This document shows positions 13-8,902 of a DNA stretch of 9,142 bases, piece after piece. A model generated the notes under the pieces. It did not search any database and was not told where the DNA came from. It worked only from the letters and a program-made list of their open reading frames with translations. The translations under genes and the position numbers were made by a program. Numbering within the stretch: position 1 is the stretch's first letter; every line of letters begins with the position of its first letter. The DNA is from Candidatus Iainarchaeum sp. (GTDB lineage: Archaea; Iainarchaeota; Iainarchaeia; Iainarchaeales; CSSED10-239). The stretch is from positions 1-9,142 of the forward strand of contig CALBUD010000080.1 of assembly GCA_937968065.1 (NCBI GenBank), written 5' to 3'.

Positions 13-579
13 CTAAGCGCAAATATTCGCCAAAGAGTTTAGAAAATTCCTTTTAAAAGAAGAAATAATGATATCAATTTTCTTTTCATTTTCTGGATAC
101 AACTGAATTATGCAAATTCCTTCTTTTTTTAGAATTGTTTTTAAATCATTTCCAATTTTTTTAATAATATTTTTAATTTCGATTTCTTTTTTGTTTGGTA
201 AAAGCCATTGAAGAGCAGAGATTGAAAGAATAAGATCATATTTTTCAGAAATCTTATTAAGTTCTTGAAAACCACCAATCTTAACATTTAGTTTTTTAAT
301 TTTTGCAAGTTTTATCATTTCTTTAGAAGGGTCAATACCTTTTAGAGAAGAATAACCTAAAGACTTTAAAAACTCTAAAGAAAAACCAGTACCACAACCA
401 ATATCTAAAATATCTATTATTTTATTTTCAGATAAAGGTTTTGATAAATTCAGCGCAATTTTTGTAAGTTCTATTTGTGTCTTTCTCATTCCTGAGCTTT
501 GATTATATCTATTTGCTTCTTCTTCTGTATAAAAATCATTTGGATCTGTAAATTTTTGTTCAGGAGTTTCTTGCGTCAT
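13..579 (-). CDS. Class I SAM-dependent methyltransferase, Bud23/WBSCR22-like (putative small-subunit rRNA methyltransferase)
   Basis: 188-aa ORF with its TAG stop at 13-15. It has SAM motif I, ILDIGCGTGFS. The blocks FYTEEEANRYNQSSGMRKTQ, LSISALQWL and IQLYPEN line up with Bud23/WBSCR22 blocks as I recall them (PPE.FY..EA.KY...SR...IQ; ISISA.QWL; LQLYPEN). The C-terminus looks short compared with the eukaryotic methyltransferase domain. Confidence 0.8.
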   Translation of the reverse strand: MTQETPEQKFTDPNDFYTEEEANRYNQSSGMRKTQIELTKIALNLSKPLSENKIIDILDIGCGTGFSLEFLKSLGYSSLKGIDPSKEMIKLAKIKKLNVKIGGFQELNKISEKYDLILSISALQWLLPNKKEIEIKNIIKKIGNDLKTILKKEGICIIQLYPENEKKIDIIISSFKRNFLNSLANICA

Positions 580-611: not shown

Positions 612-1670
612 TTATTTTTGAACATGAATTGTTTGTGTTGGAAATGCAAACTCAATTTTTTCTTTTTCAAATTCTTTTTTAATTGTTAGATTAATTTTAT
701 CTTTTATCTCAAGATAATATTTATAATCATTTGCAACAATCCAATAAATAATTCTTATATTTAAAGAAAAATCTCCAAAAGATTCAAAAGAAACTAAGAA
801 AGAATCTTGCTCTACAAATTTATTTGATTTTAATATTTTTATAATAATTTGTTTTGCTTTTTCAAGTTTTTTAATATTTGTTGAGTAAGTTACACCAATT
901 GTAAAATTTTCTCTTCTAGCTCTTCTTGCAGAAATATTTTCAACAAAATTTGAAGATAAATGTTTGTTTGGAACAACAACTAAAGTATTATCAAAGGTTC
1001 TTATCTTTGTAGATCTAATTCCAATTTCTTCAATAGAACCAAGACCATCTGATGTTTTTAAAACATCACCAATTTTAAATGGTTTTTCAAGAAAAATAAC
1101 AACACCTGATAAAAAATTTTCAAAAATATCTTTTGATGCTAAAGCAATTGCAAGACCACCAATACCAAGCCCTGCAAGTAAAGCACTGATATTATATCCA
1201 AGGTTTGATAGTACTAAAAGAACTGCTATTACAAAAAATATAATTCTGATTAAAGCTTTTAAAACTGGGATTAACTGATCATCATATTTTGATTCTGTTT
1301 TTTTAGCATATGGTTCAAAATATTCTTCTATTAAACCTATACAAAACTTAATAATAAATAAAGTAACTGCTAAAACATATACTAAAAAAGAAGCCTGTTT
1401 TATAAAATTTATCCACCAATCAGAGACTACTAAATATTTAAAACCAATATTAAAAAAAATAGCAACAATTACAAGAACAAAAGGAATTGGTTTTGCTAAA
1501 ATTTTTGCAATAATATCATCTATTTTTGTTTTTGTGTATCTTGTAAGTTTATATAAAACATGCTTACTTATAAAAACAACAATCCAACTTACAACAAAAC
1601 CAATTACTATAAATAAAAAAAACCAAAAATAATTGTTTAAAGTGTTTCCAAATAATATAAAATCAGCCAT
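612..1670 (-). CDS. MscS-family small-conductance mechanosensitive ion channel
   Basis: 352-aa ORF. The N-terminal half is hydrophobic with several TM helices and carries two TK.K.DD / TESKYDD motifs. The pore-helix and beta-domain signature GLGIGGLAIALASKDIFENFLSGVVIFLEKPFKIGDV...IEEIGIRSTKIRTFDNTLVVVPN is typical of the MscS family. Confidence 0.93.
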   Translation of the reverse strand: MADFILFGNTLNNYFWFFLFIVIGFVVSWIVVFISKHVLYKLTRYTKTKIDDIIAKILAKPIPFVLVIVAIFFNIGFKYLVVSDWWINFIKQASFLVYVLAVTLFIIKFCIGLIEEYFEPYAKKTESKYDDQLIPVLKALIRIIFFVIAVLLVLSNLGYNISALLAGLGIGGLAIALASKDIFENFLSGVVIFLEKPFKIGDVLKTSDGLGSIEEIGIRSTKIRTFDNTLVVVPNKHLSSNFVENISARRARRENFTIGVTYSTNIKKLEKAKQIIIKILKSNKFVEQDSFLVSFESFGDFSLNIRIIYWIVANDYKYYLEIKDKINLTIKKEFEKEKIEFAFPTQTIHVQK

Positions 1671-1802: not shown

Positions 1803-2510
1803 ATGGATAAAAAAACAATTATTGAACTTAAAAATGTCTCTAAAATATATAAAATGGGAGAAGTTGAAGTTAAAGCTGTAAATGATGTCTCCCTTAAAAT
1901 TTATGAAAAAGAATTTGTAGCTATTATGGGTGCTTCAGGATCAGGAAAGTCAACAATGATGCATCTTATTGGAGCTTTAGATCTTCCTACAAAAGGAGAT
2001 ATTTATATAAATAAACAAAAATTAACAAAATTTACAGAAAATGAACTTGCAAAATTAAGAGGTAAAACAATTGGTTTTATTTTTCAAGATTTTAATCTAA
2101 TTTCTACATTAACAGCATTTGAAAATGTAAGACTTCCTTCTCTTTTTCAAGATGAAAATAATGAAGAAGAATTAGATAAAAGATGTAAAAACCTTTTAGA
2201 AATTGTTGGACTTAAAGATAGAGTTAATCACAACCCTAGTGAGCTTTCAGGTGGACAACAACAAAGAGTTGCAATTGCAAGAGCACTTTCAAACAATCCA
2301 CAAATAATTCTTGGAGATGAACCTACTGGTGCTCTTGATTCTAAATCTTCTGTTGAAATTATATCTCTTTTAAAAAAATTAAATAAAGATGGTAAAACAA
2401 TAATTCTTATAACACATGATCCTAATGTTGCAAATAATGCAAGAAGAATAATTACTTTAAAAGATGGAAAAATAATTGAAGATAAGATAAATAGAAAAGA
2501 AAAAATATAA
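1803..2510 (+). CDS. ABC transporter ATP-binding protein, MacB/LolD/SalX-type (COG1136-like)
   Basis: 235 aa. Walker A GASGSGKST (nt 1929-1955), Q-loop FIFQDFNL, ABC signature LSGGQQQRVAIARAL, Walker B IILGDEPTGALD and H-loop ILITHD are all present. The N-terminal IELKNVSKIYKMGEVEVKAVNDVSL is typical of the MacB/LolD subfamily. Confidence 0.96.
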   Translation: MDKKTIIELKNVSKIYKMGEVEVKAVNDVSLKIYEKEFVAIMGASGSGKSTMMHLIGALDLPTKGDIYINKQKLTKFTENELAKLRGKTIGFIFQDFNLISTLTAFENVRLPSLFQDENNEEELDKRCKNLLEIVGLKDRVNHNPSELSGGQQQRVAIARALSNNPQIILGDEPTGALDSKSSVEIISLLKKLNKDGKTIILITHDPNVANNARRIITLKDGKIIEDKINRKEKI

Positions 2511-2546
2511 ATTATTTTTAAAAAGAAATTTAAAAAAGGAAAAAAA

Positions 2547-3737
2547 ATGAAACAAACACTTCCATTTATTTTAATGAATCTTAAAAGAAGAAAATTAAGA
2601 AGTTATTTAACAATTATTGGAATAATTGTAGGTGTTGTTGCAATTGTATCTTTAATGTCACTTTCAGAAGGACTTAAAACAGGAATAACTGATGAATTTG
2701 CAAAAACAGGTGCACAAAAAATAACAATAACTTCAAAATATATACAGTTTGGACAAGGATCAGATTCAGGACTTACAACTGATGATGTTAGAGAAATTGA
2801 AAAAATACAAGAAATTGAATTTGCAACAGGATATTTAAGTTCACAAACATCATCTAAATTCTCAAGAGAAGAAAGATTTGTAACTATTACTTCTTTTGAA
2901 ACAAAAAACTATGAAAAAATATTATTTTTAGAAGGAAAAGAGATATTAAGAGGAAAAATAATAGATAATGATAAAGCAAAAGAAGTTGTAATTGGTTTTG
3001 ATTTATTTAATAGTTCTAATTTTTTTGGAAAAGAAATTAAGATTGGAGATACCATAGAAATTTCAAATCAAAATTTTAAAATTATTGGAGTTTTAAAAGA
3101 TACAGGAAATAGAAGTGCTGATAGAGTCATGTATATTTCCATGGACAACATGAGAGAAATTACAAACTCAAATGATATAGAAGTTGATAGTATTTATGCA
3201 GTTGTTAAAGATAATAGTGATGTTGAAGAAGCGGGAAAAAAAATAGAAGACAGACTTGAAAGATTTAGAAAAGATAATGATTTTGTAGTAACTACTGCAA
3301 AAAAAGCATTAGAAGATAGAGAAGAAACATTAAAGGTAGTTTCAATTATTGTTATTGGAATTGCTGCAATTTCTTTGTTAGTTGGAGGAATAGGTATTCT
3401 TAATTCTATGTATACTTCTGTTCTTGAAAGAAAAAAAGAAATTGGAATCATGAAAGCAATTGGGGCTAGAAGAGAAGATATTTTAAAAATATTTTTATTA
3501 GAATCTGGAATTATTGGGCTTATTGGAGGAATAATAGGAACAATAGGTGGATTTTTAATATCTTTTATAGTATATATTATAGGAAGATTTGCAGAAGTTG
3601 AAATTGCAATTTCATTTGACATATCAATAATTTTAATAGCTCTTAGCTTTTCATTTTTACTAGGATTATTGGCAGGATTTATGCCAGCATACCAAGCTTC
3701 AAAACAACAAGCAATTGATTCTTTAAGAGAAGAATAA
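2547..3737 (+). CDS. ABC transporter permease 1, MacB/FtsX-type (COG0577-like)
   Basis: 396 aa. The N-terminal NLKRRKLRSYLTIIGIIVGVVAIVSL forms TM1. A hydrophilic extracytoplasmic domain of about 220 aa follows, then three C-terminal TM helices with the FtsX-domain loop NSMYTSVLERKKEIGIMKAIGARREDI. An SD-like AGGA sits at 2537-2540. Confidence 0.93.
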   Translation: MKQTLPFILMNLKRRKLRSYLTIIGIIVGVVAIVSLMSLSEGLKTGITDEFAKTGAQKITITSKYIQFGQGSDSGLTTDDVREIEKIQEIEFATGYLSSQTSSKFSREERFVTITSFETKNYEKILFLEGKEILRGKIIDNDKAKEVVIGFDLFNSSNFFGKEIKIGDTIEISNQNFKIIGVLKDTGNRSADRVMYISMDNMREITNSNDIEVDSIYAVVKDNSDVEEAGKKIEDRLERFRKDNDFVVTTAKKALEDREETLKVVSIIVIGIAAISLLVGGIGILNSMYTSVLERKKEIGIMKAIGARREDILKIFLLESGIIGLIGGIIGTIGGFLISFIVYIIGRFAEVEIAISFDISIILIALSFSFLLGLLAGFMPAYQASKQQAIDSLREE

Positions 3738-3740
3738 AAT

Positions 3741-4394
3741 ATGAAACCAAAATACGGAAGAAGTAGAGAACCTGTTAAAGGTTTTGAAAAAATTTTAGAA
3801 ACAAAAAAAGAAAGTTGGCCAAGCTTTGGTCAAGAAAATAAATATTTCCAAGTTTATTTTGTAAAATTTAAAGAAAAACCAATAGAATTTTTAAAAACAA
3901 AAAAAAATCCAAAAATAATGGTTCTTGGTGCTGGAGAAGGTAAAGATCTAAAATTATTAAAAAATGAATTTAGAGATGCAAAAATTGATGTTTTTTCTTT
4001 AACTAAATCTTTAAATAAAGATATTAAAAGAAATGTTATAAATAGAGATCATACAATTTTTGTAGCTCTTGAAAGTTTAGATTCAAGATTTAAAAAACAT
4101 AGACAATTAATAGAAAAATTAAAAAATAAATATGATTTAGTAATTGCTCCTTTAAGTGTAGGGATATATACTAATTATCCTGTGTTTAATATTTTTAGAT
4201 CTTCTATGATGCTTAGAAAAAAAGGACAATGTTTTATAGAGATATACACTAGAGAAAATGTTGAAAAAATATTTAATAAGTTTGTAGAAGTATATAATCG
4301 TCAACAAAAAACAAAATATTCTTTTGAAATTAAAAAAATAAATCAAAATGCAGATAATACAAGAAGTTATTATCAAATAATTAGAACAAATTAA
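3741..4394 (+). CDS. Hypothetical cytoplasmic protein with a possible Rossmann / class I methyltransferase-like fold
   Basis: 217 aa with no signal peptide or TM segment. Its start lies 3 nt after the permease 1 stop. The Gly-rich motif KIMVLGAGEGKDLKLL (nt 3912-3959) is followed by KIDVFSL, YDLVIAPLSVGIY and LRKKGQCFIEIY, in the order expected for beta1/beta2/beta4/beta5 of a SAM- or nucleotide-binding Rossmann fold. I recognise no family. I am fairly confident it is a real gene, but confidence in the fold call is low. Confidence 0.6.
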   Translation: MKPKYGRSREPVKGFEKILETKKESWPSFGQENKYFQVYFVKFKEKPIEFLKTKKNPKIMVLGAGEGKDLKLLKNEFRDAKIDVFSLTKSLNKDIKRNVINRDHTIFVALESLDSRFKKHRQLIEKLKNKYDLVIAPLSVGIYTNYPVFNIFRSSMMLRKKGQCFIEIYTRENVEKIFNKFVEVYNRQQKTKYSFEIKKINQNADNTRSYYQIIRTN

Positions 4395-4411
4395 AAAAAA
4401 GGTGAAAAAAT

Positions 4412-5653
4412 ATGAAAATAAATAGAATTTTAATTGCTTTTTTTGCATTAATTTTGATATTAAATCCAATTAATGCACAAACAACAGATTATGATATAAT
4501 TAATCTAAATGCAGATACTTATAATTATACTCCAACACCTGTTATTTCTGGTGAAGAGTTTGAAATATGGATACAACTTACAAATAAAAGTAATCTTCCT
4601 GCAGAAAATATTGAATATTTTCTAGAAGTTGATTATCCATTTATTTTAGTTTCTGAAAATGAAGAAAAAATAAATAAAATTGAACCATATCAATCAAAAA
4701 TAATAAAATATAAATTAAAAACATATGGAGATACCTTAACAGGTACTTATGATCTTGATTTTAGATATACAAGAGAAGGTATTTTTGTATATAATGTTAA
4801 AAAATATACAATTGATGTTAAAGGAAAAAATGCAATCATAGAAGTTATTTCTTCAAATATTAAAAACACAAATATTGGAAGTAGTTCTGAAATAATATTA
4901 AATCTTAAAAATCTTGGACAAAAAGATTCAAAAGATATTTTTATAACTTTAGGAGATTCTTTAGATGAAACTATAAAAGTTATTGGTCTTAAAACACAGT
5001 ATCTTGAAAAAATAAATGTTAATGAACAAAAAGAAGTTACCTTTAAGTTAGATATTTCAAAAAATATAATTAACTCAAGTTATACTCTTCCAATAACAAT
5101 TAACTATTCAGATGTTGATAGAGAATATACTATTGAAAGAAACATTGGTTTTAGAATAGAAGATGAACCAAAAATGATTCTAAATATTGTAAATATTGGA
5201 AAAGATTTTAAAATAAAACCTAATTCTTTAGAAAAAATTTCATTAGAGATATATAATATTGGAAATGTAGATACAGAAGTTTCATATATAATTGTTGAAG
5301 GAGAAGGAATTAACCAAACACAAGAATTTATAGGATCTATTGAAAAAGACAATTATGATAGATTAGAAATTGATTTAAAAACAAAAGATATTAAAGAAAA
5401 AGAAACAAACATAACTGTAAATCTTTTCTATAAAGATAGTTATTTACAAGAACAGAAAATAACAAAAACAATTACTGTTGAAACTGATTTTACAACAAAT
5501 GGACAAAAAGCAAATAGCCTTATAATGTCTTTGTTTGGAATAATTGGTTTTATTGTAGGACTTGCATTGTTTATCTTAATTGCAAGATGGCTTATAAAAA
5601 TATTAATAAAACCGGCATATAAAGTTATTTTAAATATTTTTAAGAAAAAATAA
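4412..5653 (+). CDS. Secreted, C-terminally membrane-anchored surface protein with three CARDB/COG1361-like beta-sandwich modules
   Basis: 413 aa. GGTGA SD at 4401-4405. Signal peptide MKINRILIAFFALILILNPINA|Q. Three modules of about 110 aa (aa 24-138, 139-252, 253-359) each carry the pattern G..(E/S).I.L.L.N.G/S ... charged beta strand ... Y.L.I.I.Y, for example SEIILNLKNLGQKDSKDIFITLG and EKISLEIYNIGNVDTEVSYIIVEG. The C-terminal TM helix SLIMSLFGIIGFIVGLALFILIA (nt 5516-5584) is followed by a basic tail. There are six N-x-S/T sequons. Confidence 0.7.
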   Translation: MKINRILIAFFALILILNPINAQTTDYDIINLNADTYNYTPTPVISGEEFEIWIQLTNKSNLPAENIEYFLEVDYPFILVSENEEKINKIEPYQSKIIKYKLKTYGDTLTGTYDLDFRYTREGIFVYNVKKYTIDVKGKNAIIEVISSNIKNTNIGSSSEIILNLKNLGQKDSKDIFITLGDSLDETIKVIGLKTQYLEKINVNEQKEVTFKLDISKNIINSSYTLPITINYSDVDREYTIERNIGFRIEDEPKMILNIVNIGKDFKIKPNSLEKISLEIYNIGNVDTEVSYIIVEGEGINQTQEFIGSIEKDNYDRLEIDLKTKDIKEKETNITVNLFYKDSYLQEQKITKTITVETDFTTNGQKANSLIMSLFGIIGFIVGLALFILIARWLIKILIKPAYKVILNIFKKK

Positions 5654-5674
5654 CTTTTTTTTATTTTTTTATAA
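5654..5674 (+). terminator. Oligo-T tract (T8, A, T7) between the surface-protein gene and permease 2; possible archaeal-type partial terminator or attenuator
   Basis: CTTTTTTTTATTTTTTTATAA lies directly after the TAA at 5651-5653 and abuts ATG 5675. Archaeal RNA polymerase terminates at oligo-dT runs. There is no stem-loop, and function is inferred only. Confidence 0.25.
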
Positions 5675-6904
5675 ATGAAAAACATGAATAAAAAATATAA
5701 ACATTTAGTAGATTTAACTATTAAAAACATATATAGAAGAAAACTAAGATCAATTCTTACAATCATTGCTGTAGTTATAGGTATTGCAACAATTGTATCT
5801 TTATTTTTAATTAGTGATGGGTTATTTAATTATGTTGAAGATGCTTTTATGACAATGGGAATTAACACTATTTTTATTTTTCCTATTAGTTTTCAAGGAG
5901 GACCGTCACAATCAATTGGAAGAATTTCTGAAGAGATAAAAATAACTGAAAATGATTTAAAAATAATTGAAAGGATAAATGAAGTTGATTATGCAGTTGG
6001 TTTTTCATTTAGAACTGGAAAAATAGAATTTAAAAATGAAGAGTTATTTCAATTTGTAATATTTATTGATTCAAAAGAAGTTGATAAAACCTTTGAAATA
6101 ATGAATATAGAACTAAGAGAAGGAAAAACATTTCAAGGAAAAGAAGGAAGTAATGTTTTAATAGGGCCATATATTGCTGATAACTTTTTTAAAGAACCTG
6201 TAAAGGTGGGACAAAAAATAAAAATACAAGATAAAGATTTTAAGGTTATAGGTATACTTGAAACTGTTGGAAACATACAAGACGATTCACAAGTGTACAT
6301 TACAAGAAAAAGTGCAGAAGAAATATTTACTATTGGAGATACTTTAGATCAAATATTTGTAAGTGTTAAAAAAGAATATGATCCTTTAATTGTAAAAGAA
6401 GAAATTGAAAAAAGACTTGAAAGAGAACATGGAAAAGATAAATTTTTTATAATTACTGCACAGCAAGTATTAACAATGATTAAATCAGTTATTGGACTTT
6501 TAAAAGTTATTTTAATATCAATTGGATTGATTTCTTTAATTGTTGGAAGTATTGGAATCATGAACTCTATTTATACTTCTGTTATTGAAAGAACTAAAGA
6601 AATTGGTATATTAAAATCATTAGGTGCAAAAAAAGAAGATATTTATTTTATATTTACTTTAGAATCTGTTATTTTATCAATTATTGGTGGGATTATTGGC
6701 CTTGGACTTGGAATATTTATTTCAAAAGCTGTTGAATATTATGTTGCAAGTCAAGGTTTCTTAACTCTTAAAATAATTGTAACTTGGCAAATAATTGTTC
6801 TTGCTATTATTCTTTCAATAATTATTGGTATTGTATCAGGACTACTTCCAGCAAATAAAGCATCAAAAATGAATGTTGTTGAAGCTTTAAGAAAAGTTGT
6901 ATAA
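5675..6904 (+). CDS. ABC transporter permease 2, MacB/FtsX-type, paralog of permease 1
   Basis: 409 aa; an alternative start exists at ATG 5684. The architecture matches permease 1: NIYRRKLRSILTIIAVVIGIATIVSL as TM1, a large extracytoplasmic domain, then the NSIYTSVIERTKEIGILKSLGAKKEDI loop plus three TM helices. A 35-nt block at 6572-6606 matches 3411-3445 at 32/35 positions. Confidence 0.93.
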   Translation: MKNMNKKYKHLVDLTIKNIYRRKLRSILTIIAVVIGIATIVSLFLISDGLFNYVEDAFMTMGINTIFIFPISFQGGPSQSIGRISEEIKITENDLKIIERINEVDYAVGFSFRTGKIEFKNEELFQFVIFIDSKEVDKTFEIMNIELREGKTFQGKEGSNVLIGPYIADNFFKEPVKVGQKIKIQDKDFKVIGILETVGNIQDDSQVYITRKSAEEIFTIGDTLDQIFVSVKKEYDPLIVKEEIEKRLEREHGKDKFFIITAQQVLTMIKSVIGLLKVILISIGLISLIVGSIGIMNSIYTSVIERTKEIGILKSLGAKKEDIYFIFTLESVILSIIGGIIGLGLGIFISKAVEYYVASQGFLTLKIIVTWQIIVLAIILSIIIGIVSGLLPANKASKMNVVEALRKVV

Positions 6905-6974
6905 GTTTGTTTTAGAAACTCTTTTAAAATTATTGATTATAAATATATCTTATATATTTAAAAAAGAAAAAAAT

Positions 6975-8126
6975 ATGATTGATGAAAAAATTATTGAAAT
7001 TATTAATAATCTTAAAAATAAAAGATTAACTGATGTTGAGATTACAGATATTCTTCTCGAAAATAATTATAAAATAGATGAAATTAAAGAAAATTTACAT
7101 GAATATAATAGAAAACATGGACTTGTTGATGAAGACTATCTTGAAGAATATTATAAACTTCAAGAAAATGTTAAAAAAATGAAATATTTTGAAAAAAAAA
7201 AGATGGCAAAAAATAAAACTAAGTCTATTAAAAAAACCAAAAAAACAAATAAGATATTCTATGTTATTTTAATAATTCTTATTTTAGCAATATTAATTAT
7301 GGGTTACTTATATTTAGAACAAACAGAATTTGATTTTGATTTTTTAAAAAATAAAGAAGTTGTGGATAATAATATTATAAATCTAAACCAAGATCTAAAT
7401 GTAGATAATAACACAAATCAAGAAAATGAAAATCCACCCTTAGTAGATGAAAATGCATTTATTCCAGATGAAAATATCTATCTTCCAGATGACAGTAATT
7501 CAGAAGAAGAAAACGATATTGAGGCTCTAACAAATCAAGAATTTTTAATTGAATTATCTTCTTATCAAAATCTTTTAAGAACAAAAGAATTTTTTAATAT
7601 TAATATTTCTGAAGAATATATTATCTTAGGAGATGTTTATTTTGAAGATGAAAATATATTTGATTTAAACTTAGTAATTATGTATATTAGTGATAATAAT
7701 CTTGAAAAACAAGAATTTCATAATCTTTCTTTAAATAAAGTTGAAAAATATAATGAGATTGTTTTAAAATCTTTTAAAGATTATAATTTTTTAGAAGATC
7801 AAGAATTATTTAATACTTTAGAATATCAAGAGGTTCCTGATTCTCAGAAATATAGATATTATTTATTAAAAATGATTTTACAAGAAGCTAACTTAAGAGA
7901 GATTTATTCTTCAGAACTATTAAAATTATCTTCAGTAATTTTAAATACAGATTACAAATTTAGTAATATTAATTTAGAATATGCTATTGAAGAAAATATT
8001 GAAAATAAAAATATATTTATTATGAATTTTTTAAATGATCTTGAGATAATACAGACAACAATAACTGATTTTAATACTAATGAAAAAAACCTTATTATTC
8101 AAAATTTTAATGAGATAATCAATTGA
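6975..8126 (+). CDS. Hypothetical single-pass (type II) membrane protein with an acidic N/D/E-rich linker and an unknown ectodomain
   Basis: I prefer ATG 6975 (383 aa) over the TTG at 6897 used in the ORF track. A small helical N-terminal domain (KIIEIINNLKNKRLTDVEITDILLENNYKIDEIKENL) comes first, then a Lys-rich stretch KKKMAKNKTKSIKKTKKTNK. This is followed by the TM helix IFYVILIILILAILIMGYLYL, a low-complexity acidic linker, and a Cys-free domain of about 200 aa. I recognise no family. ATG 7203 is another possible start. Confidence 0.7.
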   Translation: MIDEKIIEIINNLKNKRLTDVEITDILLENNYKIDEIKENLHEYNRKHGLVDEDYLEEYYKLQENVKKMKYFEKKKMAKNKTKSIKKTKKTNKIFYVILIILILAILIMGYLYLEQTEFDFDFLKNKEVVDNNIINLNQDLNVDNNTNQENENPPLVDENAFIPDENIYLPDDSNSEEENDIEALTNQEFLIELSSYQNLLRTKEFFNINISEEYIILGDVYFEDENIFDLNLVIMYISDNNLEKQEFHNLSLNKVEKYNEIVLKSFKDYNFLEDQELFNTLEYQEVPDSQKYRYYLLKMILQEANLREIYSSELLKLSSVILNTDYKFSNINLEYAIEENIENKNIFIMNFLNDLEIIQTTITDFNTNEKNLIIQNFNEIIN

Positions 8127-8202: not shown

Positions 8203-8216
8203 TAAATATAATTTAG

Positions 8217-8289
8217 GCCTCTATAGCTCAGTGGCTAGAGCGGCAGTCTTGTAAACTGTAGGTCGAGGGTTCAAATCCCTCTAGAGGCT
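8217..8289 (+). tRNA. tRNA-Thr (anticodon UGU), 73 nt, no encoded CCA
   Basis: I folded the cloverleaf by hand. Acceptor GCCTCTA/TAGAGGC gives 7 Watson-Crick pairs, with U8. D arm is GCTC-AGTGGCTA-GAGC. Anticodon arm is GCAGT-CTTGTAA-ACTGT, with TGT at positions 34-36. The variable loop is AGGTC, the T arm is GAGGG-TTCAAAT-CCCTC, and the discriminator is T at 8289. The next bases are TCTTTC, so CCA is not encoded. Confidence 0.93.
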
Positions 8290-8372
8290 TCTTTCTATAA
8301 GTTAAAAGCCCTTTTTCTAAAAAACAAAGATTTAAAATTAGTTTATAACTATAATATATTAGGTGAAATAAA

Positions 8373-8576
8373 ATGCAAATAGAAATAACAAAAGAAGTAG
8401 ATACAAAACTTAAAAAAATAAGTTCAGTATCTGGTCTTGATAGAAAAAAAATTGTTACAAAAGCAATAGATTATTATTTATTGGTTTTAGACCAAGAATT
8501 AAAATTAAAAAATGAATTTGGTTCTCTAGACAAACTTAGTGATGAAGCACTATTAAATTTTGAGGAGAATTTGTAA
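8373..8576 (+). CDS. Ribbon-helix-helix (CopG-like) antitoxin of a MazF/PemK-type toxin-antitoxin pair
   Basis: 67 aa. AGGTGA SD at 8361-8366. N-terminal MQIEITKEVDTKLKKISSVSGLDRKKIVTKAIDYYL fits a beta-alpha-alpha RHH layout, and the acidic C-terminal tail is LSDEALLNFEENL. Its stop overlaps the toxin ATG by 1 nt (TAATG at 8574-8578). Confidence 0.75.
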   Translation: MQIEITKEVDTKLKKISSVSGLDRKKIVTKAIDYYLLVLDQELKLKNEFGSLDKLSDEALLNFEENL

Positions 8577-8902
8577 TGTTTGATGTTGGAGATGTTTGTT
8601 TAATGGAACTACCATCATCAGATGGTCATGAACAAACAGGCCAAAGACCATGTTTAATTATTTCTGAAATGGAAGCAAACACGCTTTTAGTTGTCCCCTT
8701 TACCACTAATCTAAGAGCTATAAAATATTTAAGTTCTATACAAATAGAACCCTCTTCTTTAAATGGACTTGATAATACCTCGATCGCCTTAGTTTTTCAA
8801 TTAAGAGCAATTGATGTAAAAAGACTAATAAAAAAAATTGGAGTCTTAGAAGAAGAATATCTAAAAGATGTCAAATTAATTTTATCTAAAAAAATATTAT
8901 GA
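8576..8902 (+). CDS. mazF: MazF/PemK-family endoribonuclease toxin
   Basis: 108 aa. GAGGAG SD at 8562-8567. GDVCLMELPSSDGHEQTGQRPCLIIS...LLVVPFTTN matches the MazF/PemK core (GD..wv...p..G.EQ.G.RP.vvls...v.vvP.Tt). Its size and its position after a small antitoxin gene are typical. Confidence 0.9.
   Translation: MFDVGDVCLMELPSSDGHEQTGQRPCLIISEMEANTLLVVPFTTNLRAIKYLSSIQIEPSSLNGLDNTSIALVFQLRAIDVKRLIKKIGVLEEEYLKDVKLILSKKIL

Follow-up and report, generated by a model that had tools for sequence, protein, structure and literature searches.

We analysed a stretch of 9142 bp (about 23% GC) of Candidatus Iainarchaeum sp., in the following called the window, which carries a gene cluster for an ABC transporter together with a gene for a beta-sandwich surface protein (BS). 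The closest relatives of this DNA belong to the Iainarchaeota (DPANN), for instance Ca. Forterrea multitransposorum, for which a complete genome exists. The cluster comprises six co-directional open reading frames (ORFs) on the plus strand (Table 1), which are separated, in order, by 36, 3, 17, 21 and 70 nt. Shine-Dalgarno-like motifs are found at 2537-2540 (AGGA) and 4401-4405 (GGTGA). An initial annotation had described a MacB-type ABC cluster of a DPANN archaeon at this place, and the reading frames, their spacing, both motifs, the sequence motifs of the ATPase and the layout of the two permeases were all recovered as it had given them.

Table 1. Features of the ABC transporter cluster, with coordinates in the 9142-bp window and the basis of each assignment (TM, transmembrane helix; AF2, AlphaFold2 model; SAM, S-adenosylmethionine).
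Feature	Position	Strand	Basis
ABC ATPase (nucleotide-binding domain), MacB/LolD/FtsE type, 235 aa	1803..2510	+	PF00005, motifs, MJ0796 closest structure
Permease P1, 396 aa: TM1, MacB periplasmic core domain, FtsX TM bundle	2547..3737	+	MacB_PCD, FtsX
OrfA, 217 aa, cytoplasmic, predicted class I SAM-methyltransferase fold	3741..4394	+	AF2 and Foldseek, LGAGxG
BS protein, 413 aa, COG1361/CARDB-like family	4412..5653	+	AF2, homologues, synteny, hhalign
T8-A-T7 tract, possible archaeal oligo-T terminator or attenuator	5655..5670	+	function inferred only
Permease P2, 409 aa, paralogue of P1 with the same MacB layout	5675..6904	+	MacB_PCD, FtsX
OrfB, 383 aa: N-terminal helical domain, Lys-rich linker, TM 94-112, acidic/Asn-rich extension	6975..8126	+	homologue alignment

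The ATPase has all motifs that define a type VII (MacB/FtsX-fold) nucleotide-binding domain (NBD), namely Walker A (GASGSGKS, residue 43), Q-loop, signature (LSGGQ, residue 148), Walker B (IILGDE) and H-loop (ITH, residue 203), and it matches PF00005 with an E-value of 1.2e-34 and 120 bits (cut-off 25). In NCBIfam it is closest to the NBDs of MacB, LolD, DevA and FtsE, without reaching any of their equivalog cut-offs. Among solved structures, MJ0796 of Methanocaldococcus jannaschii (1f3o, 1l2t) ranks first (3e-73), followed by Spr0694, MacB and LolD. MJ0796 is the classic archaeal LolD-like NBD, and of that system only the NBD has been studied. The ATPase, which is predicted to act as a dimer, heads the cluster in every locus long enough to tell, both within the clade of the window and in the distant loci described below.

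Both permeases consist of a first TM helix, a large extracytoplasmic MacB core domain and a C-terminal FtsX bundle, the layout that characterizes type VII permeases, and a hydropathy scan gave the corresponding profile of TM1, large loop and C-terminal TM cluster. The Pfam scores lie far above the gathering scores for MacB_PCD (PF12704; P1 102.9 bits, 3.7e-29; P2 98.4 bits, 9e-28; gathering score 27) as well as for FtsX (PF02687; P1 77.7 bits, 1e-21; P2 78.4 bits, 6.1e-22; gathering score 25.5). The solved structures closest to P1 are MacB (5lil, 3.2e-36), Spr0695 (5xu1_M) and YtrF, and P2 matches MacB 5lil with 1.2e-34; structures of LolC/LolF and FtsX match both permeases far more weakly than MacB does (LolC/E 1e-7 to 1e-6). 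P1 and P2 share 36% identity. In the orthogroups obtained from about 18 species, the upstream permease is always of the P1 type and the downstream one always of the P2 type. Since the two orthogroups are distinct and their order is fixed in all genomes, the duplication must be ancient, predating the clade, with both copies retained ever since. Such retention is as expected for an obligate heterodimer, and P1 and P2 are predicted to form one in the manner of LolC/LolE. The transporter is thus an unremarkable type VII system.

Within this class, the permeases come closest to MacB. They share TM1, periplasmic core and FtsX bundle with MacAB(-TolC) and with Spr0693-0694-0695 (5lil, 5nik, 5xu1), and the NBD is encoded separately, as it is in Spr0694/0695. 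MacB itself is a homodimer, in contrast to the two paralogous permeases found here, and the host is an archaeon without an outer membrane; the MacB equivalog NF007826, which describes a fused NBD-permease, gives 263, 145 and 144 bits with the separate gene products of the window against a cut-off of 966. A likeness to LolCDE lies in the combination of one ATPase gene with two paralogous type VII permeases (the predicted heterodimer), as well as in the appearance of LolD among the best NBD matches. However, the lolCE model TIGR02212 yields only 67 and 53 bits against a cut-off of 362, no LolA/LolB-like gene is present in the window, and BS carries no lipobox.

The similarity of the ATPase to FtsE (NCBIfam, 8.6e-66), together with the presence of a dedicated extracytoplasmic partner protein, also brings FtsEX into consideration. 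Type VII systems include pure mechanotransducers, and in such a regulator nothing would be transported; instead, mechanotransmission would switch BS, or an enzyme bound to it, at the cell surface, as is the case with EnvC, PcsB and RipC. We regard this as highly improbable. The permeases match MacB at 1e-36 and contain the full MacB_PCD, whereas FtsX models reach only 26-42 bits against cut-offs of 225-255, and in the Protein Data Bank (PDB) FtsX is matched by P1 with 1.7e-4 and by P2 not at all. Furthermore, neither a coiled coil nor a hydrolase-like domain was found in BS by Pfam, AlphaFold2 (AF2) or Foldseek, and the pairing of its family with pumps of another class, described below, points to transport.

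In the AF2 model of BS (pLDDT 85), a signal helix at the N-terminus precedes three tandem beta-sandwiches (residues ~30-137, 143-248 and 255-358) and a long C-terminal TM helix, which is followed by a conserved basic tail. A signal-peptidase-like site (INA|Q) is conserved at the N-terminus, so that the mature protein should be a type I membrane protein. Tandem beta-sandwiches in a secreted or anchored archaeal protein are the hallmark of COG1361/CARDB-like proteins, and we assign BS to this group. By sequence, CARDB (PF07705) matches BS of the window below threshold (18.6 bits, E-value 0.0022, threshold 22.7), and most of the close homologues, of which 57 were found, carry precomputed PF07705 matches. 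Conservation in the anchor region (TM helix 0.68, tail 0.62) is similar to that of the folded domains (0.62-0.69) and exceeds that of the signal peptide (0.46) and the linker (0.37). W393 is invariant, G383 nearly so, and the tail contains a KPAY motif. Neither a lipobox nor a sorting motif was detected in BS, and a sequence search of BS against the PDB found nothing. Looking its sequence up for exact matches returned no contig.

Two sets of loci were collected. Using the BS alignment, we fetched 18 loci of GTDB species representatives plus further contigs, and annotated them with the proteins of the window. Every clade locus long enough to show gene order, from about 18 Iainarchaeota species, has ATPase, P1, BS and P2 in this succession. 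Beyond the clade, an exhaustive profile search was needed, as a second word-indexed search yielded few new sequences; it returned 5188 representatives at E<1e-3, and for 460 of these the E-value was below 1e-30. The top 150 are mostly ~400-420 aa long and share signal peptide, C-terminal TM helix and basic tail, and one relative is named "COG1361 S-layer family protein" by NCBI. Thirty distant members, 25-45% identical to the reference sequence P0078 of their alignment, were aligned, and with this alignment alone 66 metagenome loci (GC 0.26-0.58) were fetched. Their relatives, where named, are archaeal, mostly Diapherotrites/Iainarchaeum.

Wherever the contig extends far enough, BS is immediately preceded by an ATPase or permease gene in 42 of 43 distant loci and immediately followed by a permease gene in all 41. 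This bears out the remark in the initial annotation that COG1361/CARDB-type genes recur next to COG0577/COG1136 ABC genes in archaea. The dominant orders are ATPase-BS-permease (25 loci) and ATPase-BS-permease-permease (13 loci), while ATPase-permease-BS-permease, as in the window, is confined to low-GC Iainarchaeota-like loci. ATPase and BS genes overlap by 4 nt in 24 of 46 distant loci, which implies translational coupling. In distant loci with two permease genes, the first bears a weak resemblance to P1 and the second a weak one to P2, which hints, not strongly, that BS and P1 may have changed places in the clade of the window. A BS gene inside a MacB-type cluster, regarded as unusual at first, is therefore the rule for this family, and only its slot between the two permeases is clade-specific.

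The same protein family also occurs beside a second class of transporters. When distant BS proteins were compared with annotated plasmids by tblastn, the only matches were haloarchaeal proteins named "COG1361 S-layer family", CARDB or NEW3. The relationship was corroborated by hhalign, which aligned the BS family profile with a COG1361 protein of Haloferax volcanii over all three domains (98.2%, E-value 4.7e-14). In 10 out of 10 gene pairs inspected on nine haloarchaeal plasmids (L094-L102), a gene for an MMPL/RND (resistance-nodulation-division) transporter comes 0-28 nt after the COG1361 gene, and most of these loci carry a divergent TetR or HTH regulator gene. An example is found on Hfx. 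volcanii pHV4 (472294-476165; HVO_RS03915/03920). Two modules of this kind lie in tandem on pNG500 of Har. marismortui. This arrangement is the one seen at acrR-acrAB in bacteria, except that a COG1361 gene takes the place of the adaptor gene. The haloarchaeal modules thus have a protein of the BS family immediately beside a membrane exporter, as in the window, with the differences that the exporter is a proton-driven RND/MMPL protein instead of an ABC transporter and that the COG1361 proteins are longer (460-640 aa). No experimental literature on the TetR-COG1361-MMPL/RND module was found.

Linkage of the BS family to MacB-type genes, and to MMPL/RND genes in haloarchaea, is hence near-universal. 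Pairing with a second transporter class favours an adaptor-like accessory subunit over cargo, and one accessory family beside two unrelated exporter classes mirrors the bacterial membrane fusion protein (MFP) adaptors. The S-layer label of COG1361 proteins is an annotation only, and the exporter operon context argues for an accessory role. In summary, we read 1803-6904 as a four-component MacB-type (type VII, FtsX-fold) ABC system with BS most likely as its stoichiometric extracytoplasmic accessory subunit, and give this reading a probability of roughly 65%. The window then represents a gene-order variant of a widespread archaeal exporter module, to which two lineage-specific genes have been added. 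The initial annotation had left open whether the surface protein is an adaptor-like partner or the cargo; the first of these gains support from the MMPL/RND pairing, and the second is disfavoured by it.

In such a system, BS would be anchored beside the permeases and packed against their TM bundle, so that some three Ig domains would stand out above the periplasmic domains of the permeases. ATP-driven mechanotransmission would close these domains, and BS would receive or guide what they expel, provided that transport is directed outwards. BS would thus be a functional analogue of the periplasmic adaptors MacA and AcrA in a cell with a single membrane. MacAB likewise has a dedicated membrane-anchored extracytoplasmic partner encoded in its operon, but this partner is an MFP/HlyD-family adaptor, while the proteins of the window have no HlyD/MFP match in Pfam or NCBIfam and the partner is a COG1361 beta-sandwich type I protein. 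An architectural analogy, and no more than that, exists with LptB2FGC, where an ATPase dimer and a heterodimer of paralogous permeases are joined by LptC, a single-pass beta-sandwich protein. LptC has its TM helix packed against the transporter, and through its beta-jellyroll the lipid cargo is handed on. LptB2FGC differs in its unrelated type VI fold and in the N-terminal anchor of LptC, and the Foldseek search with BS found no match to it in sequence or fold. As for the substrate, known substrates of LolCDE, DevBCA, HrtBA, MacB, MmpL and HpnN are mostly lipids, lipoproteins and amphipathic compounds. Since this holds for both partner classes, a lipophilic or amphipathic envelope molecule or peptide is probably the best guess.

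If BS were the cargo, a heterodimeric MacB/LolCDE-like transporter would pull the anchored protein out of the membrane and then place it in the S-layer or on a host cell, or release it there. LolCDE, the best-known heterodimeric type VII system, does extract membrane-anchored proteins, some sources attach an S-layer label to members of the BS family, and each cluster encodes exactly one BS-type protein. We nevertheless consider this model unlikely. Proton-driven MMPL/RND transporters, beside which the family was found in all ten haloarchaeal cases, are not known as protein exporters; the frequent 4-nt overlaps of ATPase and BS genes suggest equimolar synthesis, as for a subunit; and the TM helix and cytoplasmic tail of BS are as conserved as its folded domains. 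The missing lipobox and sorting motif, as well as the low lolCE scores, speak in the same direction.

Several points weigh against our reading of BS as an accessory subunit. Adjacency alone would also fit BS as a dedicated cargo. The predicted fold gives no functional clue, as Foldseek returned generic Ig-like arrays only (integrin legs, transglutaminase barrels, ciliary ASH proteins) with TM-scores of ~0.3. Linkage to a transporter is not universal for all family members: a subfamily of BS paralogues (27% identity, ~385 aa; L004, L005, L024-L027), which lacks the extended conserved tail, is encoded between a RelA/SpoT-family gene and a gene for a KaiC/GvpD-like ATPase, with no transporter nearby. 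Finally, the 21-nt spacer between BS and P2 is occupied, directly after the BS stop codon, by the T8-A-T7 tract, which holds the only T8 run of the window; in ~10 of 16 relatives, too, the BS stop is followed by a T-rich tract. Since transcription in archaea is terminated by oligo-T tracts, attenuation or separate transcription of P2 is possible. With termination between BS and P2, the four genes might not all be expressed together. A scan of the window for promoters and terminators gave 80 promoter-like sites against 71 expected and no hairpin terminators, which is uninformative at 23% GC.

The two remaining genes of the cluster were examined in the same loci. The initial annotation had taken the three non-transporter genes and the transporter as one unit, and its descriptions of the gene products hold: OrfA is Rossmann/methyltransferase-like (AF2, Foldseek), BS has three beta-sandwich modules, and OrfB is an acidic single-pass protein by composition and by its TM helix. 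Conservation of the unit does not hold, as only BS is conserved with the transporter. Co-occurrence with MacB-type genes was found for BS and was not found for OrfA and OrfB beyond the clade.

OrfA has no Pfam or NCBIfam match, and a sequence search against the PDB gave nothing. With its AF2 model (pLDDT 81, pTM 0.82), all top Foldseek matches are SAM methyltransferases (E-values 2e-8 to 2e-6, TM-scores 0.4-0.6), including UbiG (2.4e-8), BpumL, spermidine synthase, Bud23 and MnmM. The Rossmann-like seven-strand fold is accompanied by a glycine-rich motif I (LGAGxG) conserved in the OrfA family, as in class I SAM methyltransferases. At the sequence level, only 2 of 19 family members match Methyltransf_23 (best E-value 1.2e-4). 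The family profile gives a marginal match to spermidine synthase in the PDB (0.046). We describe OrfA as a protein with a predicted SAM-methyltransferase fold and putative activity. An origin as a duplicate of the methyltransferase encoded upstream of the cluster (13-579) was considered and rejected, since hhalign related the two with 35% probability over motif I only.

Only 8 homologues of OrfA were found by word-indexed search. The gene lies between P1 and BS in the window and in 4 of ~18 related species, namely in Forterrea (L001/L007), L011, L016 and L021. In L010, L013 and L023 the 3' end of P2 is directly adjoined by a longer, convergent paralogue on the other strand, in L012, L014 and L022 a paralogue is found 0.6-2.5 kb downstream, and L018 (3-3647) has five tandem paralogues immediately ahead of MscS and the ABC cluster. 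Varying in position, strand and copy number, OrfA represents a multi-copy, clade-restricted family. It keeps only a loose closeness to the cluster, though this may not be random.

OrfB starts at ATG 6975 according to the alignment of homologues, while the mechanically delimited ORF begins at TTG 6897. A conserved N-terminal helical domain of ~60 aa is followed by a Lys-rich linker, the single TM helix and a C-terminal part of 258 aa (7350-8126, residues ~126-383), which is acidic and Asn-rich (D+E 20%, K+R 6%) and predicted to be extracytoplasmic. No family match was found in Pfam or NCBIfam. The N-terminal 125 aa match tail-anchored proteins of 143-152 aa encoded after P2 (1e-19 to 1e-25), and this module is limited to the four nearest species (L001/L007, L006, L008, L009). 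The nearest relatives stop right after the TM helix, and neither phmmer nor tblastn detected a homologue of the 258-aa extension in any fetched locus. The idea that the C-terminus is a fused neighbouring gene was rejected on the same grounds; the extension may be a recent lineage-specific elaboration of the surface.

These distributions bear on the model in which all six genes form one unit, with OrfA methylating the substrate or a component prior to export and OrfB serving as a membrane subunit or attachment factor. The gaps of 3 and 17 nt do place OrfA inside the operon, and ~12 of 19 clade loci have a paralogue no more than 7 kb from the cluster, at one of three places (in the operon, convergently abutting P2, or in tandem upstream), which looks beyond chance; an N-terminal homologue of OrfB follows P2 in the four nearest species. 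The operon lacks OrfA in most species, however, and the slot between P1 and BS is free of it even in the close relatives L006, L008 and L009. Among the 66 distant loci OrfA occurs only in L063, a contig of GTDB locus L014 and thus of the clade of the window itself. The multi-copy nature of the OrfA family, the absence of OrfB past the nearest relatives and an extension unique to the window likewise disagree with a six-gene unit, and in most genomes the core works without either gene. The chances of this model are small in our judgement, and OrfA and OrfB are lineage-specific additions outside the core module.

In bacteria, type VII ABC transporters and RND pumps are connected to the outer envelope through periplasmic adaptors, and there both kinds of system are well understood. 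To our knowledge, an archaeal equivalent of these adaptors has not been described. The BS family, whose genes nearly always accompany those of MacB-type pumps in DPANN-related archaea and those of MMPL/RND pumps in haloarchaea, is a concrete candidate for this missing component, and the COG1361-MMPL pair on pHV4 of Haloferax volcanii offers a tractable test system. A more far-reaching proposal is tentative: COG1361 proteins might be the archaeal counterpart of MFP adaptors for MacB-type ABC and MMPL/RND exporters and carry lipophilic cargo across the pseudo-periplasm or S-layer, possibly for the exchange of lipids or envelope material with the host in lipid-auxotrophic DPANN episymbionts such as the present one. 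With regard to DPANN biology, the module stands out as a conserved machine of the envelope, of which a minimal genome has only few. In the searchable literature we found no description of COG1361/CARDB proteins as partners of ABC/MacB or MMPL/RND exporters in archaea, nor of this double link, and a dark-matter review (PMC6393860) does not mention the association.

The flanks of the cluster carry genes of other kinds. Divergent from the cluster lie a class I SAM methyltransferase gene (Methyltransf_11; 13-579, minus strand) and an MscS channel gene (612-1670, minus strand). The N-terminal motif of this methyltransferase presumably resembles that of Bud23-type rRNA methyltransferases. Many related loci keep this pair ahead of the ABC cluster, and the methyltransferase gene alone, without MscS, was also found in two distant loci (L035, L050). 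On the other side, a tRNA-Thr gene (anticodon TGT; 8216-8291, plus strand) begins 90 nt past the OrfB stop codon and marks the downstream end of the cluster. A Forterrea-like contig carries a cas1 gene ~3 kb downstream of the cluster (L001:12498-13679, minus strand), which the window does not have. Next to the tRNA gene of the window, a type II toxin-antitoxin pair is encoded on the plus strand (8373-8576 and 8576-8902, overlapping by 1 nt). The toxin belongs to PemK/MazF (PF02452, 3.9e-22), and the antitoxin-like protein of 67 aa, which is without a family match, has a homologue in L023 (3e-31).

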